The notes under the pieces were generated by a model. The model saw only the letters and a program-made list of their open reading frames with translations. It was not told the origin of the DNA and searched no databases. This document shows, one piece after another, positions 10,027 through 28,748 of a stretch of DNA of 31,968 bases (position 1 is its first letter; each line of letters begins with the position of its first letter). The stretch covers positions 1-31,968 of IMG/VR virus record IMGVR_UViG_3300001866_000029; one strand, given 5' to 3'. A program made the position numbers and the translations under genes. Origin of the DNA: a virus. Taxonomy: Duplodnaviria; Caudoviricetes.

Positions 10027-10380
10027 TTATCTTGCCTTCACTTCGATAAAGTTCAAATCTGGATAGACGTAGAGTAATATCTTTTTCCGAATGGCATAGG
10101 ATTCCGTGATATGCCCTTTTACATCCTCGACGATGCGCCGATTCGTCCGCGTGTCCAGGTAGCGAAAATCTGCCCGGTAGGTGAGGGCTTGCACCTTCTT
10201 GCCTTCGCGGATATACGCGGGCTGTAGGATGTAGGCGGGTTGCAGTTCCAGATCGCGGATAAGCCCTGCGCGTTCGAGCATACGAAGCTCGGCATAGCGG
10301 TTCATCTCCGCACGGCTGGCAAACGTGCGCCCGTCCATAGTGCGGGACTCCGGCGATGATACGCGGATACGGGCGCTCAT
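10027..10380 (-). CDS. DUF1064-like PD-(D/E)XK nuclease / putative resolvase
   Basis: DG.TFAS..E..RY.EL...LELQP.Y...YRADF.Y....VEDVKG signature. Confidence 0.85.
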   Translation of the reverse strand: MSARIRVSSPESRTMDGRTFASRAEMNRYAELRMLERAGLIRDLELQPAYILQPAYIREGKKVQALTYRADFRYLDTRTNRRIVEDVKGHITESYAIRKKILLYVYPDLNFIEVKAR

Positions 10381-12620
10381 TCTTCAAACTCCAACATTTC
10401 TTTCGTTGTCTCACGCTCAATATTCGCCATATTTCGGCAAGCCTGCTCGAAGTAGGAACGCTTTAACTCTACACCTATAAACTTCCGTCGAAGTCTTACT
10501 GATTCATAGCCTTCCGAACCAATTCCAGCGAACGGAGAAAGTACCGTATCGCCGGGGTTAGTCCAGAGTTGTAAAGCTCTATGGATAACCTGAAGCTGTA
10601 GTGGGCAGATATGGCGCTCGTCGTTGTGTTCCCGTGCGCTTCTGAACTGGAGCGTATCGGAGGGGTTTATATCCATCCATACCGGGGAAGCGTATCGCTG
10701 CCAGATATCAATAGACAGCCGTCCTGTCGATTGGAATGTGCCTTCTTCTCCGCAATAATGGTCAAGCTCGCCCTCGACTGATTCAGGATTGATGCCGGGT
10801 TTTCGCATGGTCACGAGGTAGTCCGGTACGCCCTGCCGACTCATGCAGGAATCTTTCGCAAGCTGTTTATGCAGTAGGCCGATTGCCTTTGTCCTTTGCA
10901 TGGCGGTAACGGGGTCCTTCCAGATACACACCTCGGAATGGTAAATAAAGCCCTCGCCCTCGAATAGCCGAATCAGATCGCCGCGAAAATCGGATATGCC
11001 GATATAGCCTTGATGCGTGATCGTAGTGGGCAGATTCATGCAATGAAAGGATACGAGTCTACCAGGCATGATGACGCGGAATAATTCCTTGACAAGAAAG
11101 CGAAGATGCTCTGCAAACTCTTTCTCATCCTTAGAATTGCCCATATCCCTATCACTATTTGAATACGTATAGAGGCTTGCAAATGGCGGCGAGAATACGG
11201 AAAAGTGTATTGATTCGCTCGGAAGTTTTGCTACTTGCTCGACGCAATCCCCTAGATACATCGTCCAGTCTTTGCCTTCTCTTTTTTCTTCCATGTAGAC
11301 CGCCCTTGATCGTTCAGTGCCTTTAATGTTTGCTTCGTTTATGGCGTGCATATTTGACACCATCATTTCAGCCATTCGCAGCGCGTCAGCCTCTTTACGC
11401 TCGATGTTCTTTACTACCATCCCTTCAGTGTCTGCTGTTATAACTTTGCATAGTACCTTGTGAGTCTGGCCGAATCTCCAGCATCGACGTATGGCCTGAT
11501 AGAAGGCTTCGTAAGAATCAGAAAGGCCGACAAAAAAGACGTTATGGCAGGATTGAAAGTTCATTCCGAATCCAGCAATCTTTGGCTTACTTACGAGTAC
11601 GCGGATTTTACCATGAGAGAAGTCAAGTAATGATCGTTCCTTATGTTCCTCAGAATCCGCGCCTTCCACTTCCACGGCATCGGGAATAAGCCTGGTTAAT
11701 TCATGGCTTTCATCGTTCAGATCGCACCATACAAGGCACTGGCCTTCGGTTCTATTAACTATTTCAGCGCACTTCAACGCCCTGTCGGATATGCTTGATC
11801 GCCTTGCTCCTTGCCGTTCCTGCAGGGTGTTAGCTTCGATGGCGAATAGCATCCCTTCAGTAGGTTCGGAGACTTCAACGGTGATCTGTTCCATTTCAAG
11901 GGGCGGGAGAATAAAATCGCCATCCTCATAACCAAGATCGGAAGGCTTGCGAATCATTACCGCCCATGAGCATACCCAATGCCAGAACTCGGCTTCGGCA
12001 TGGCCTTTCAATCGCCATGTCTGCGTTTCGCCGCCATCGTGAACAAAGAACATCGAGAGCATTTCCGTCCGCTTCATGGTTCCTAAAAACTCGGCATGAT
12101 TGCCTAATTCCATGAAGTCGTTCGGGGCTGGCGTAGCCGTACAGCATAGCCGGAAAGGGACATTGCCGAATCGCTCTATTAGCATTGTCCTATACTTGCC
12201 AGTGTAGCTTTTCAGGATCGAGCTTTCATCTAATACGATGCCTTGGAACATTTCAGGGTCGAACTTTTCCAGCCGTTCATAATTCGTGATCGTAATCCGC
12301 GAATTGATAGATCCGTCTCCAGAGTATTCTATACCCTCAACGCCGAACTTCGCTGCCTCTCGGATAGTCTGCGCAGATACCGCAAGCGGGGCAACGATAA
12401 GAACGCGCCCAGGGATATGCCGCGCCCATTCAAGTTGCATTGGTGTCTTGCCCATGCCGCAATCGGCAAAGATAGCCGCCCTGCCGCGTGCAAGCGCCCA
12501 CCTGGTAATGTCGTGCTGGAAGGGAAAGAGCATAGGATTGAGATCGTCCTTTTCGAGCGCAAAGCCAGTAGGCTTGTCGATGATTGATTTCTGCGCGATA
12601 AACTGCGAATAATCCGTCAT
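10377..12620 (-). CDS. SF2 (SNF2-like) helicase fused to a beta-class N4/N6 DNA methyltransferase
   Basis: ADCGMGKT, LDESS, TATP and QAIRRCWRFGQ motifs, then GDC, FSPPF and VLSPFAGIGS. Start moved to ATG 12620 (ATGA-coupled). Confidence 0.9.
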   Translation of the reverse strand: MTDYSQFIAQKSIIDKPTGFALEKDDLNPMLFPFQHDITRWALARGRAAIFADCGMGKTPMQLEWARHIPGRVLIVAPLAVSAQTIREAAKFGVEGIEYSGDGSINSRITITNYERLEKFDPEMFQGIVLDESSILKSYTGKYRTMLIERFGNVPFRLCCTATPAPNDFMELGNHAEFLGTMKRTEMLSMFFVHDGGETQTWRLKGHAEAEFWHWVCSWAVMIRKPSDLGYEDGDFILPPLEMEQITVEVSEPTEGMLFAIEANTLQERQGARRSSISDRALKCAEIVNRTEGQCLVWCDLNDESHELTRLIPDAVEVEGADSEEHKERSLLDFSHGKIRVLVSKPKIAGFGMNFQSCHNVFFVGLSDSYEAFYQAIRRCWRFGQTHKVLCKVITADTEGMVVKNIERKEADALRMAEMMVSNMHAINEANIKGTERSRAVYMEEKREGKDWTMYLGDCVEQVAKLPSESIHFSVFSPPFASLYTYSNSDRDMGNSKDEKEFAEHLRFLVKELFRVIMPGRLVSFHCMNLPTTITHQGYIGISDFRGDLIRLFEGEGFIYHSEVCIWKDPVTAMQRTKAIGLLHKQLAKDSCMSRQGVPDYLVTMRKPGINPESVEGELDHYCGEEGTFQSTGRLSIDIWQRYASPVWMDINPSDTLQFRSAREHNDERHICPLQLQVIHRALQLWTNPGDTVLSPFAGIGSEGYESVRLRRKFIGVELKRSYFEQACRNMANIERETTKEMLEFEE

Positions 12621-12694
12621 AGATGCCGCCATACCAGCACGATAGCGATGATAAAGAGGGCAAGCGCCCCAAGGCACAGGATGGACGCGATCAT
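12617..12694 (-). CDS. 25-aa single-TM micro-protein MIASILCLGALALFIIAIVLVWRHL
   Basis: ATGA overlaps at both ends; almost entirely hydrophobic. Confidence 0.65.
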   Translation of the reverse strand: MIASILCLGALALFIIAIVLVWRHL

Positions 12695-12861: not shown

Positions 12862-12910
12862 AGTATAAATCAGGGCTTGCGGGGTGTCAATATATATTCG
12901 TAACTTTTAT
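12862..12910 (-). promoter_or_regulatory. Near-consensus sigma70 promoter TTGACA-N17-TATACT with an upstream conserved box
   Basis: -35 at 12885-12890, -10 at 12862-12867. Confidence 0.9.
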
Positions 12911-12986: not shown

Positions 12987-13376
12987 TCAATGAATGGCGA
13001 AATAGATAGCCGCGCCTGTAGCCAAGACTACCGCGCCGCCGAGTAGCCAGTTACGGCGCGAGGCTTTCGATAGGGCGCTTTCGTAGCTCGATGCTGATTG
13101 CTTGTATTGCGTCAAGGATTGCTCTAAGCTTTGCACCGCTATCGATTGCGCTTGCAATTGCGCTTTGAGCCGTACTGATTCGGCCATCGATGCTGTCAAG
13201 GATAGCTCGGCTAGCGTCAGCTTTTGCTGTAGCAAGGTCAGCTCGTTCCTCGCTTGCTCTAAGAGCAGATCGAAGTTGTCCCATGTCGCGGGTGTATTTG
13301 ATTGCGAAAACGCCAAGGGCGGCGAGCAACAGGCAAACAATAACGACAAGCACAATACGAATGATTTTTTCCACAT
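12987..13376 (-). CDS. Spanin-like protein A: signal peptide or lipobox, coiled coil, C-terminal TM (129 aa)
   Basis: MWKKSFVLCLSLLFAC; heptad-rich middle; RRNWLLGGAVVLATGAAIYFAIH tail; TAATG-coupled to the holin. Confidence 0.7.
   Translation of the reverse strand: MWKKSFVLCLSLLFACCSPPLAFSQSNTPATWDNFDLLLEQARNELTLLQQKLTLAELSLTASMAESVRLKAQLQAQSIAVQSLEQSLTQYKQSASSYESALSKASRRNWLLGGAVVLATGAAIYFAIH
13051..13374 (-). CDS. Spanin-like protein B (i-spanin-like): N-terminal TM plus coiled coil, nested in A in another frame
   Basis: GTG start 2 nt after the ATG of A; MEKIIRIVLVVIVCLLLAALGVFAI then an Ala-rich amphipathic helix. Confidence 0.65.
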   Translation of the reverse strand: MEKIIRIVLVVIVCLLLAALGVFAIKYTRDMGQLRSALRASEERADLATAKADASRAILDSIDGRISTAQSAIASAIDSGAKLRAILDAIQAISIELRKRPIESLAP

Positions 13377-13582
13377 TATTCCATCCTTTCGGCGGATTTT
13401 CGCAGATTGGCCAGGTCGCCGATTGTCGTAAGCCCCAAGAGGATAAGCGTCGCCCCTGCGAATATGGCGATTACTTCCCACGGTGCAACGCCCCAGGACA
13501 GCGCGATTGCATTCCCGAACGATGCCAGAGCCAGGACGCGCCGCATCGAGTGGACGCCTTTTGTTTCCTCGAAGATGGTCAC
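13376..13582 (-). CDS. Putative holin (68 aa, two hydrophobic segments)
   Basis: GTGA-coupled start MTIFEETKGVHSMRRVLA..., two TM-like stretches, charged C-terminus, lysis-cassette position. Confidence 0.65.
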   Translation of the reverse strand: MTIFEETKGVHSMRRVLALASFGNAIALSWGVAPWEVIAIFAGATLILLGLTTIGDLANLRKSAERME

Positions 13583-13971
13583 GATAGCCTCCTGAAAACC
13601 CGCTTCGATATGCACTTGCCATTCTTGCGGGTCTGCGAATTGCCGAGCGGATCCCATAGATCAGCGCCCAGCCGTAACATGAAATGGACGTACTTCCAGA
13701 GCCATTCCTCAATTACCACGTCGCCGGGTTGCGGGTAATACTCCGGCCCTTCCTTACGATATGCCCATGAGCCGCCCGCGCAAAGATCCATGAACTGAGC
13801 GTGTTTCCATACAAGCATTTCAGCGCCAAGGAACTTCAACTGTTGCCCTTGGATTACAAGCTCCACCGCGTCACGTGCAGGACGGCCTGGTTTCGCGCCC
13901 TCGATGATGCAGAGCGCAAAGCATCCTTCCTCGCCCATGGTCTTGAATAGCGCCTGTATGCCCGCGATCAT
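13579..13971 (-). CDS. DUF261-like Cys-His-Asp protein, candidate endolysin
   Basis: GCFALC...HFML...WDPLG.S.T.KNG...SKRVF; lies between membrane proteins at the end of the late operon. Confidence 0.6.
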   Translation of the reverse strand: MIAGIQALFKTMGEEGCFALCIIEGAKPGRPARDAVELVIQGQQLKFLGAEMLVWKHAQFMDLCAGGSWAYRKEGPEYYPQPGDVVIEEWLWKYVHFMLRLGADLWDPLGNSQTRKNGKCISKRVFRRLS

Positions 13972-14372
13972 GCCGTTTTCCCGATGTCTTGGCAACCCAT
14001 CTTTTCAATCAGCCGCGTAGTAATCTCTTTCTTGGTCTTGCGTACCATTTCGATAGCGTCGCCCACGTTGCCATTTAGTCCCTCGCCATGTATTGCCATG
14101 AGCGAGATTTCAAGCGATTCAAGCTGGGCAAGCTGGATAGGATACAGGCAGCGTATATCCTCGCCCATGACTTTTTGATCGTGCTTAACTTCGCCCAGTA
14201 TTGTAACTACGCGTTGCAAGGTAGCATCGCGCTCAGCCTCTAGGGTCAGCTTGCGGATATGCCGCGCCCTGATGCCCTTGTGAACCTGCTTGCCGATAAA
14301 CACTATTCCGGCGACAACCGCACCGCCCGCCGCTACGATCATTGCATCCCGCAGGATGGTAAGTACGCTCAT
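13968..14372 (-). CDS. Membrane-anchored coiled-coil protein (holin/antiholin-like)
   Basis: N-terminal TM (AMIVAAGGAVVAGIVFIG); RBS AAAGGA before ATG 14372. Confidence 0.6.
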   Translation of the reverse strand: MSVLTILRDAMIVAAGGAVVAGIVFIGKQVHKGIRARHIRKLTLEAERDATLQRVVTILGEVKHDQKVMGEDIRCLYPIQLAQLESLEISLMAIHGEGLNGNVGDAIEMVRKTKKEITTRLIEKMGCQDIGKTA

Positions 14373-26797: not shown

Positions 26798-26973
26798 CCC
26801 TTTCTCCTTGCCTTTTTAGGCGTTGGCTTTGCGGCTACTGGCTGCGCGGGCTCTACCTTCTCGGCAAGCCCGCCTGCAACCAACTCAGCGGCCAGCTTAT
26901 CTGGCAGATCGCGGAGGCCAGGCCCCCATGATCCGTCAATGCAGCTAACCGCCGATTTCAGCTTTACGATCAC
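26794..26973 (-). CDS. Small head-associated protein (59 aa, basic tail)
   Basis: GTGA-coupled to the capsid stop; DLP...A..LV.GG.AE motif. Confidence 0.7.
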   Translation of the reverse strand: MIVKLKSAVSCIDGSWGPGLRDLPDKLAAELVAGGLAEKVEPAQPVAAKPTPKKARRKG

Positions 26974-28088
26974 GCGTGCATCGCCAAGAGTTCGAGCGCC
27001 GAAGTGTCCCACAGTTTGCCGTCGATGCGCTCGGCAAAGTCCCAGTTGGTCGCATGGGTGTCTGCGTTCTCGGTGACCTTGAGAGCCAGGTTAGGGCGGC
27101 GCTCTCCGATTGCGTACCCGTTGAAGTTAACGCAGGAAATTACCTTCGCGCTGCCAGTGATTTCCGGGCAGTTCGAGTCACGGATGACCGGCTTGCCGAA
27201 CAGGGTTGCAAAGGGCGAATTGTGCATCCTGTCCTCGAAGTAATAGATCGGAGGTGTCCCGCCGTCGTTGAGAGCGCGAAGCACGGCAGCGGTCGAGGAG
27301 TGCATCACGTACACAGGGCCGCGATAGGTGGCAGGGTTGTTCGGGTCGTAAGCGCCCACAGCGCCCCATTCCTGTCCAAGCAGCTCGTCGAAGGCCACAA
27401 GCTCGGCATAGGTGATCGCGGAAGCGGAAGCCGTGGTTTTGGTAGCCGTCTCGACGAAGATGCCCTTGGGCTGTCCAGAGCCAGTGCCGGTGAGGAAAAG
27501 ATCGTTTTCGGCTTTGGCAATGGCAACGGCGGCGAGCTTCTGGAAGATTGCGAAGCGTTCAAGCACGGTGTCCTCGGTGGCTTCCTCGGTGATCGAGTAG
27601 CGCCCGCCCAGCTTGACCAGCGCCATCGTAACGGCGGAGGGTTCGCCCTTGTCGGCATAGGAACCGGCCTCGGCTATGATCGCGGCTGCGTTCTTGATTA
27701 CGTCAGCCGTGAAGGTGAGGGAGCCGGAGGGAGCACCGAATACCTGAGCACCCCAGCGCCTAGCGATGGAATAGAAGTTCAGGTTCGCAAGGAACTCGGG
27801 CATAGCAACCGTGGGAATGCCGAATCCATCTGAGGTCTTTATGATCGCAGCGGAGTCTTTGGGCTTCATCCTGCCCATGAGTAGCGGGACAAGCAGATCG
27901 GAAATCTTGTCGCTCTGCACCTGGTTTTCAAGTGCCCGTCCAGCGGGAACCATCTTGAGAACCACAGGGGCAACCTTATCGGTTATCATTTTCAGGAAGT
28001 TCTCGTCCTGGGCGAGGTCGAGGCCGGGTGCTCCGGCCTGGGGAGCCGCAACCTGTGCGGACTGGGTCTGGATGGTAGTTTCGTCCAT
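26970..28088 (-). CDS. Major capsid protein from an internal in-frame start (372 aa)
   Basis: AAAGGAG-N6-ATG (MDETTIQ) at codon 221 of the fusion ORF. Confidence 0.7.
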   Translation of the reverse strand: MDETTIQTQSAQVAAPQAGAPGLDLAQDENFLKMITDKVAPVVLKMVPAGRALENQVQSDKISDLLVPLLMGRMKPKDSAAIIKTSDGFGIPTVAMPEFLANLNFYSIARRWGAQVFGAPSGSLTFTADVIKNAAAIIAEAGSYADKGEPSAVTMALVKLGGRYSITEEATEDTVLERFAIFQKLAAVAIAKAENDLFLTGTGSGQPKGIFVETATKTTASASAITYAELVAFDELLGQEWGAVGAYDPNNPATYRGPVYVMHSSTAAVLRALNDGGTPPIYYFEDRMHNSPFATLFGKPVIRDSNCPEITGSAKVISCVNFNGYAIGERRPNLALKVTENADTHATNWDFAERIDGKLWDTSALELLAMHA

Positions 28089-28748
28089 GACCGTCTCCTT
28101 TGTTTCAGGCGCGGAGTCCGCGTCCTGATGCGATGCCAAGAGCGCCAACGGCGCTTTTCTAAAACCATATTTCTCTACGTTAAGGCAGGCGGCGGCTTGC
28201 GCCGTTTCCTCAACGCGGGAAGCAAAGCCATATTCCACAGCGTCGGCTGCGGATATCCACGTCTCATCGGCCATCATCTTGATAATCTCATCGCGGGTGA
28301 GGGCGGATCGCTCGGTGTAAAGATTGATAATGTCCTCTTTCATCTGATCCATAGTCGATGCCATTTTCCGCAAGTCCTCGGACGTGCCGATTGCGAATGT
28401 CCAGGGATCGTGAACCATGAGATAGGTTCCCCGATCCATGATGAGCTCTTTACCTGCAAGGGCGACAACCGAACCCATCGACGCGGCAAGGCCGACAACC
28501 TCAACGGTCAGCCTATCCTTTACCCGGGACAGGATGTTATAGATCGCCCATCCATCGGTTACCACGCCGCCCGGCGAGTTGATATTCAGGTGTATAGACT
28601 TGCGTCCCTTGATTTTGTCAAACTCGGCCTTGAAGTCCTCGACGCTCTGGCCCCAGCCGCCGATTTCATCGAACAGGTTTATCTCGGCCTCGTCCTCGGC
28701 CAGGTCTACAAAGCGGAACCAGGGGCGCTTTTCTTTTTCATCTTTCAC
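26970..28748 (-). CDS. ClpP-type prohead protease fused to HK97-fold major capsid protein
   Basis: INSPGG, GLAASMGS and LMVHDPW (S14 family); C-terminal FLTGTGSGQPKGI, TLFGKPV and AERIDGK. Confidence 0.92.
   Translation of the reverse strand: MKDEKEKRPWFRFVDLAEDEAEINLFDEIGGWGQSVEDFKAEFDKIKGRKSIHLNINSPGGVVTDGWAIYNILSRVKDRLTVEVVGLAASMGSVVALAGKELIMDRGTYLMVHDPWTFAIGTSEDLRKMASTMDQMKEDIINLYTERSALTRDEIIKMMADETWISAADAVEYGFASRVEETAQAAACLNVEKYGFRKAPLALLASHQDADSAPETKETVMDETTIQTQSAQVAAPQAGAPGLDLAQDENFLKMITDKVAPVVLKMVPAGRALENQVQSDKISDLLVPLLMGRMKPKDSAAIIKTSDGFGIPTVAMPEFLANLNFYSIARRWGAQVFGAPSGSLTFTADVIKNAAAIIAEAGSYADKGEPSAVTMALVKLGGRYSITEEATEDTVLERFAIFQKLAAVAIAKAENDLFLTGTGSGQPKGIFVETATKTTASASAITYAELVAFDELLGQEWGAVGAYDPNNPATYRGPVYVMHSSTAAVLRALNDGGTPPIYYFEDRMHNSPFATLFGKPVIRDSNCPEITGSAKVISCVNFNGYAIGERRPNLALKVTENADTHATNWDFAERIDGKLWDTSALELLAMHA

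Follow-up and report, generated by a model that had tools for sequence, protein, structure and literature searches.

A widespread, fully dual-coded pair of coiled-coil membrane proteins in lysis cassettes, a likely variant of the two-component spanins

Three kinds of spanin subunit are described in the available text of PMC6139136: i-spanins, which are type II inner-membrane proteins with an N-terminal helix and a helical periplasmic domain; o-spanins, which are outer-membrane lipoproteins, with the partner gene in the +1 or -1 frame and embedded, overlapped, or adjacent; and u-spanins, which are beta-rich lipoproteins with a C-terminal helix (T1 gp11). Periplasmic cysteines for intermolecular disulfides are given there as a feature of two-component spanins, and in the fusion model, zipping draws the membranes together once the wall is gone. 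The same text reports no spanin in 91 of 677 phage genomes and allows that spanin roles could be filled, unnoticed, by type I proteins or outer-membrane proteins; a type I inner-membrane protein is mentioned, with no example given, as a possible, unexamined i-spanin (PMC6139136, section 15; Kongari 2018). By the criteria of that survey, as set out in the available text, inner-membrane subunits of type I and outer-membrane subunits that are not lipoproteins would go undetected. Its six supplementary files contain none of the terms Leptospira, Treponema, Borrelia, Brachyspira, or “spiroch,” and the available text of PMC8705779 mentions predicted spanins near Leptospira prophage peptidases by the standard criteria only. 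Judged from titles and abstract openings, we found no description in the literature of the gene pair analyzed here.

The window, that is, the entire 31,968-nucleotide stretch under analysis, is a 32-kb tailed-phage record in which the terminase, portal, protease-capsid, and tail genes are all encoded on the minus strand. The tail block is followed by a helix-plus-coil gene, a DUF261-like gene, a small two-helix gene, and the gene pair denoted A and B. The features of this region are as follows:

13968..14372, minus strand: head-of-cassette gene, N-terminal helix and coiled coil; similar genes in loci L001 and L002
13579..13971, minus strand: DUF261-like gene in the endolysin slot; Pfam E 0.002, below the cut-off, which its relatives pass
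13376..13657, minus strand: small two-helix membrane protein, its stop overlapping the start of A
13372..13389, minus strand: shared initiation region with one Shine-Dalgarno-like AGGA, overlapping the upstream stop
12987..13376, minus strand: gene A, 129 aa; signal peptide, coiled coil of about 11 heptads, and an almost tail-less C-terminal hydrophobic helix
13305..13376, minus strand: A residues 1-24, predicted signal peptide, containing a non-conserved LLFA-C lipobox-like match
13230..13283, minus strand: A residues 32-49, its most conserved motif (W32, the L42 column, E45, L49), at the membrane-distal tip of the rod
12993..13049, minus strand: A residues 110-128, Gly/Ala-rich C-terminal helix, with basic residues on its N-side and no basic tail
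13051..13374, minus strand: gene B, 107 aa, GTG start, in frame -1 of A; N-terminal transmembrane helix and Ala/Ser/Ile-rich coiled coil
13300..13356, minus strand: B residues 7-25, strongly hydrophobic N-terminal helix (Kyte-Doolittle 19-mer mean 3.36), no lipobox
13078..13107, minus strand: B residues 90-99, conserved C-terminal motif A-I-S-x-E/D-L-R at the membrane-distal tip
12862..12890, minus strand: sigma-70-like promoter downstream of A, where the late block ends; a consensus match only (11/12 matches), with 2 such found versus 2.0 expected in shuffles

An earlier note on this DNA had singled out the pair, and its coordinates and anatomy of A and B are as it described. The packing of three signals into one string that it reported is present as TAATGTGG, which on the minus strand comprises the TAA of the upstream gene (13378-13376), the ATG of A (13376-13374), and the GTG of B (13374-13372). 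Its proposal of a single initiation region agrees with this layout and with the lone AGGA, located 7 nt 5' of the ATG and 9 nt 5' of the GTG in the window sequence, and we infer that both starts are used from it; in relatives, AGGAGG precedes ATGAATGA. The spacing of 2 nt between the starts is not conserved: in many relatives the start of B precedes that of A by 4 nt, and in others it follows by 5 nt, so that the label “nested” or “overlapped” flips among them. The register is not inverted, given that A lies in the +1 frame of B, the same as Rz1 in Rz, in all 51 loci of the set defined below.

The small two-helix gene upstream of A is a likely holin by its size, helices, and position; it has no Pfam or PHROG match. 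The counterpart of the head-of-cassette gene in L002 has a weak match to XhlA. In other loci, the endolysin slot is occupied by M15, M23, CHAP, amidase, or muramidase genes, and because DUF261 is exchanged with these, it is likely an unrecognized endolysin, the DUF261-like gene of the window included. DUF261 was seen in this slot in the window (13579-13971), L001, L002, L023, L035, L036, and others, and several copies in small genomes (L065, L066, L068, L077, L084) sit amid non-lysis genes. No relative of the window DUF261 protein was confirmed in viral contigs. In one protein (P0010), a DUF261 N-terminus is fused to a B homologue without a membrane helix, a deletion product or an assembly chimera. 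Directly downstream of the cassette, the window encodes a fused SNF2-type helicase and DNA methyltransferase (10377-12632), and at 26970-28748, a ClpP-type maturation protease fused to the major capsid protein. In L019 (467-1489), inspection by eye placed a gene resembling diversity-generating-type reverse transcriptases just upstream of the lysis cassette.

Protein searches excluding the query yielded five homologues each of A and B, and a profile search of 1.84 billion representatives gave 67 matches at E<=0.001, 17 of these at E<=1e-10. Both frames are open in 4/4 viral loci found with A. In L004 (3995-4432), A is frameshifted just after the stop of B and loses the terminal helix; the upstream genes of this contig also look frameshifted, so a sequencing error is likely. 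Among nine metagenome loci, one is the window itself, one repeats L001, six have both frames open (two of them cut by contig ends), and one has the pair cut short. When the holin-like gene was used as the query in place of A or B, five new viral loci were found, all five with the pair.

A genome scan with the holin-like family identified three loci. One carries the pair, with the ATG/GTG start seen in the window, in a bin titled uncultured Treponema sp.; the other two, with the pair cut, are on short contigs in bins titled Pseudomonadota. Among 401 genomes of the phylum of the Treponema bin, 53 matched at E<=5e-4, and of 30 loci fetched, seven had the A layout, all with B. A second profile, applied to 401 genomes from the order of that bin, matched 43 at E<=1e-6; in 30/30 loci fetched, the -1 frame is open for 105-200 codons, and the third frame for at most 34. 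An open -1 frame was found in 0/29 control coiled-coil matches (the 23 remaining phylum-scan matches and six from another order). A spirochaete host is likely for the window, considering that the pair occurs in the Treponema bin and its order and is absent from the control coiled coils; with two close cassettes in bins titled Pseudomonadota, this host assignment is by inference only. Among 301 genomes sampled from the order of genome G746, no full-length A was found beyond the cut copy of G746 itself. An initial genome scan with A matched 38 stretches, none of which was confirmed.

Annotated phage records yielded no relatives of A or of a DUF261 orthologue, with one search giving two records at E 0.2. 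The Atlas contained only unnamed clusters and assigned A a low recognition value. One DNA sequencing run, possibly the source, and no RNA run was listed as containing the sequence. Seven distant A-like proteins (P0037, P0040, P0046, P0052, P0067, P0070, P0073) have a signal, a coil, and a terminal helix; Bacillota is the commonest taxon for Atlas clusters similar to the distant A-like proteins, which may originate from Negativicutes, and no DNA was found for such proteins as P0052.

For quantitative analysis, we compiled 51 loci, namely the window, 18 viral, metagenome, and genome loci, two phylum-scan loci, and 30 order-scan loci, several of which are near-identical, so that counts over this set overstate independence. 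Duplicates (L005-L008, L010, L011, L021, L025-L028, L034-L037), loci cut by contig ends (L012, L016), L004, and cut copies (L032, L033, L124) were left out.

A and B share 324 nt, and in the window B lies wholly inside A; the third frame has eight stops in 108 codons. With the A protein fixed and synonymous codons drawn at phage usage, the probability of an open B frame was 0.0035; in the reverse test, with the B protein fixed, that of an open A frame was 0.00074. The probability of an open B frame given A was <0.05 in 51/51 loci (median 4.6e-4). In eight divergent pairs, A and B were each more conserved than a single-frame null: the BLOSUM score was reached by 0/3000 null draws in all 16 tests, and the identity by at most 1. 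Between the window and L002, B retains 47/99 identities (null 20.4 +/- 3.3) and A 40/97 (null 17.9 +/- 3.4). The B frame is present with A in every intact locus fetched. By conservation, both frames are coding, and the pair is almost certainly dual-coded. The reality of both frames asserted in the earlier note is thus upheld by the single-frame nulls, by the frames staying open in the viral and order-scan homologues, and by the absence of an open second frame from the controls. When the cluster representatives were tested for compatibility from the proteins alone, none was an exact A/B partner, the best having 3/107 residues incompatible.

The opposite reading, in which there is a single gene and the second frame merely shadows the codon patterns of a coiled coil, appeals to the fact that a TTG leucine codon in A automatically gives a hydrophobic codon in the B frame. 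In support of dual coding, TTA and TTG account for 525/805 leucine codons in the A coil, versus 790/2816 in neighboring genes. We regard a shadow frame as exceedingly improbable, considering that the codon-draw, divergent-pair, and 51-locus tests all favor two coding frames, that the -1 frame is open in 0/29 unrelated coiled coils, and that B carries a lipobox in 23-24 loci.

A Pfam match upstream of the pair was obtained in 37/51 loci: a wall hydrolase in 23 (M15/VanY, 10; CHAP, 6; M23, 3; amidase, 2; muramidase, 1; pesticin-type lysozyme, 1), DUF261 in 10 (three below the curated cut-off), and C39 in four. Of the remaining 14, seven have short upstream DNA or were unscanned, and seven lack a match. 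In the DUF261 or lysozyme cassettes L045 and L080, from the spirochaete sample, the slot of the pair appears, by eye, to hold a canonical-looking helix gene and a lipoprotein. The pair probably disrupts the outer membrane in lysis.

A competing view is that the pair forms an envelope tether or another membrane rod that travels with lysis genes and is not needed for outer-membrane breakage. There is no strong match of A or B to any spanin family, B giving only weak matches to the PHROG “Rz-like spanin” (E 3.6e-4 and 7.2e-4), and stand-alone copies occur amid chromosomal genes, both of which fit a tether. These copies are the intact dual-coded pairs of L040 (1354-1800; genome G103, 1.1 Mb), after a VanY-family peptidase, and L042 (1225-1788, reverse strand; G324); no phage gene was seen in the 3.3 kb fetched for either, and they are possibly domesticated. 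We consider a tether improbable: the majority of the loci (37/51) have a hydrolase, DUF261, or C39 gene upstream, canonical-looking spanin pairs fill the slot elsewhere, and in L018 a cut short pair is followed by a second cassette with a long pair.

The L018 junction (759-2100) recurs in two other assemblies (L032, 1692-2244; L033, 1235 to the end): a short A/B pair breaks off some 36 codons in and runs into the tail of the second cassette, which in L018 ends in the long pair (202/176 aa). An assembly chimera was considered for L018 and dropped, as L032 and L033 show the same junction. In L122, one contig carries a lipoprotein-form pair (144-602) and then a shorter pair of the lipid-free type (1010-1349), the two forms being defined below. 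In L073 (809-1358, reverse strand), after DUF261, a gene with an N-terminal helix overlaps the next gene at the tail only; the overlapped gene encodes a signal that ends in Ala-Gln as well as a C-terminal helix, and the arrangement may be an intermediate with partial overlap.

AlphaFold modeled A and B as one long helix each (A, residues 32-128, mean pLDDT 89.5; B, residues 2-99, mean pLDDT 81.3), in agreement with the membrane coiled-coil proteins that the earlier note saw in both frames; the pair sits at the end of the lysis cassette. The C-terminal helix of A begins just after the stop codon of B. The note further took A to be an outer-membrane lipoprotein with a C-terminal inner-membrane helix, that is, a helical u-spanin, with B as an accessory i-spanin. 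The lipobox it saw is real in the window, where both LLFA-C16 and LFAC-C17 satisfy the SpLip rule as quoted in the available text of PMC6529012, and a lipobox of this type is found in 13/19 full-length close homologues, so that A may be lipidated within this close subfamily. It is not a family trait: 6/19 of the close homologues lack it, as do L009, L023, and L024, whose siblings have one, and the long subfamily L018-L022, all of these with intact cassettes. The match is also compatible with chance. Synonymous recoding of B in the window gave A a lipobox in 51% of 168 accepted recodings, and in four other loci in 13-44%; because the signal of A overlaps the Leu/Val helix of B, Cys codons in A are nearly free. 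Downstream of the Cys come hydrophobic residues and a Pro...Ala/Ser-Gln site, with Gln25 invariant in 15/15 aligned sequences and Cys variable there, and the sequence points to likely cleavage by signal peptidase I before Gln25. Taken together with the clear lipobox that sits on B in the other form of the family, these observations make a lipidated, u-spanin-like A hardly probable; in the window, A is probably not lipidated.

The family takes two anchor forms. In the lipoprotein form (23-24 loci), the lipoprotein is B, and the helix of A is strong and followed by a basic tail; in the lipid-free form (27-28 loci, the window among them), B starts with a plain helix, and the Gly/Ala-rich helix at the end of A is weak and tail-less, with basic residues on the periplasmic side. 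A fixed rule called a lipobox followed by polar residues on B in 23/51 loci, and L118, missed by the rule, was added by eye. At least two Lys/Arg residues follow the A helix in 23/23 loci with a B lipobox versus 2/28 others (L118, L031). The A helix scored -2.7 in the lipoprotein form and +1.0 in the lipid-free form on an insertion scale, the former being more hydrophobic. Given its basic tail and strong helix, the A of the lipoprotein form resembles a type I inner-membrane protein that obeys the positive-inside rule. On a tree of the middle region of A, the form changes twice, and a single change is also compatible with the tree (AU p about 0.5, 2000 replicates); with changes so few and a single one not rejected, the anchor correlation may reflect one evolutionary event, and we treat it as a strong lead, not as repeated proof. 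A profile-to-profile comparison matched the two forms (probability 99.4), a result to which we attach little importance, as the alignments have a sequence in common and scores tend to be inflated for coiled coils.

In 50/51 loci, the two frames share their heptad phase to within 45 degrees; the genetic code accounts for part of this agreement, because a TT dinucleotide specifies a core residue whichever of the two frames is read. In the lipid-free form, the B stop lies -9 to +11 codons from the start of the A helix, and the rod lengths of A and B rise together over a range of about 80-160 residues (Spearman 0.93, n=27), whereas in the lipoprotein form they are uncorrelated (rho -0.29, n=24). 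In L009 and L017, seven codons (one heptad) were gained in both frames. The most conserved motifs, the N-terminal tip of A (in 38 sequences, columns at least 90% conserved) and the C-terminal tip of B, lie far from the respective anchors.

On sequence grounds, it is an evenly balanced proposition that A and B form a two-component spanin of reversed layout, an antiparallel zipper with anchors in opposite membranes that pulls the membranes together. Both frames are under selection end to end and in the same heptad phase, and from there the scheme would run as follows. One ribosome-binding region would yield A and B at similar levels. Signal peptidase I would cut A, leaving it held by its C-terminal helix and B by its N-terminus; because of this arrangement, antiparallel pairing would put both anchors at the same end. 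The anchors would then be in opposite membranes. In the lipoprotein form, B would be in the outer membrane and A would be a type I inner-membrane protein, for which standard sorting suffices. In the lipid-free form of the window, B would be a type II inner-membrane protein, and the weak, tail-less helix of A would pass the translocon and seat in the outer membrane, the weakest step of the scheme. The N-terminal tip of A and the C-terminal tip of B would meet first, across the periplasm, and once the endolysin removes the wall, the zipper would close towards the anchors and fuse the membranes.

For the window form, a rival topology would leave A (type I) and B (type II) both in the inner membrane as an antiparallel rod, the tips of which attack or insert into the outer membrane, or with B merely chaperoning or restraining A. 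In its favor, the C-terminal segment of A retains hydrophobicity (Kyte-Doolittle 1.9-2.7), the conserved tip with its Trp has an amphipathic character, and rod lengths are tightly matched only in the lipid-free form, as expected from one membrane. We nevertheless consider this topology unlikely: loss of the B lipobox coincides exactly with reduced hydrophobicity of the A helix and loss of its basic tail, zipping two anchors in one membrane draws no membranes together, and rod length varies about two-fold among loci.

SNAREs and class I viral fusion proteins zip helical rods together, starting at the tips farthest from the membrane and moving towards anchors that lie in two membranes; SNARE bundles are parallel. 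The zipping logic of A and B would be alike, with the difference that their pairing is predicted to be antiparallel. No sequence or structure kinship with these fusion proteins was found: a fold search of the A model against viral structures returned nothing at E<=0.001, and a PDB profile search returned two uninformative coiled-coil matches. It is conceivable, if rather doubtful, that the pair represents a lipid-free, SNARE-like prokaryotic fusogen, with antiparallel zipper halves encoded by one stretch of DNA, anchors that swapped membranes, and some copies retained on host chromosomes; as part of this tentative reading, the C-terminal helix of the window A would be the outer-membrane anchor. 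With both halves on one DNA, every in-frame indel would keep them matched.

Comparison with the described spanins places the pair closest to the two-component systems (lambda Rz/Rz1, P2 LysB/LysC), likewise two overlapping genes at the end of the lysis cassette. In the window, B has the predicted traits of a type II i-spanin (hydropathy 3.36 at residues 7-25, helix 2-99), its partner A is in the +1 frame throughout the set, and the holin/endolysin linkage is evident in the hydrolase, DUF261, or C39 genes upstream. The o-spanin starts about 0.4-0.5 along the i-spanin, whereas the starts of A and B nearly coincide; both A and B are full-length coils; and A is predicted to be cut by signal peptidase I and C-terminally anchored. 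Two-component spanins have one lipoprotein subunit, which only the non-window form matches, and there the lipoprotein is the upstream or nested gene, B, with a C-anchored partner and no gene in the type II i-spanin role. In the window, A as an o-spanin would have a non-conserved, chance-compatible lipobox and a C-terminal helix besides. Two-component spanins pair C-terminus to C-terminus, in contrast to the predicted antiparallel pairing of A and B. Periplasmic cysteines are lacking in the window, with no Cys after residue 17 of A or residue 14 of B, and a Cys is present in the A core in 17/51 loci. Like the T1 gp11 u-spanin, A combines an N-terminal export signal and a C-terminal membrane helix (residues 110-128, weak and tail-less in the window form) in one chain, but T1 gp11 is beta-rich, acts alone, and has a lipoylation signal, whereas A is all-helical (32-128), always accompanied by B in intact loci, and without a conserved lipobox. 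The hypothetical type I i-spanin, as presented in the available text of PMC6139136, includes neither dual coding over the whole length nor a form without lipid. Judging by sequence, the likely mode of action of the pair is that of a two-component spanin; since the window has no conserved lipoprotein partner and the other form no type II subunit, we consider it a variant of these systems and not a member.

The pair is real, widespread, and fully dual-coded in lysis cassettes, with dozens of related loci, many of these in spirochaete genomes. The earlier note was right that the pair is unusual and that its design differs from those of lambda Rz/Rz1 and T1 gp11, and was probably wrong about which chain is lipidated. 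A and B are an unusual case of two ordered proteins of 100-200 residues that overlap over nearly their whole length, an arrangement that gene callers often record as one gene. The family provides natural candidates for both layouts missed by the criteria given in the available text of PMC6139136. Should the lipid-free form prove functional, lipidation would be replaceable by an alpha-helical anchor at the outer membrane.
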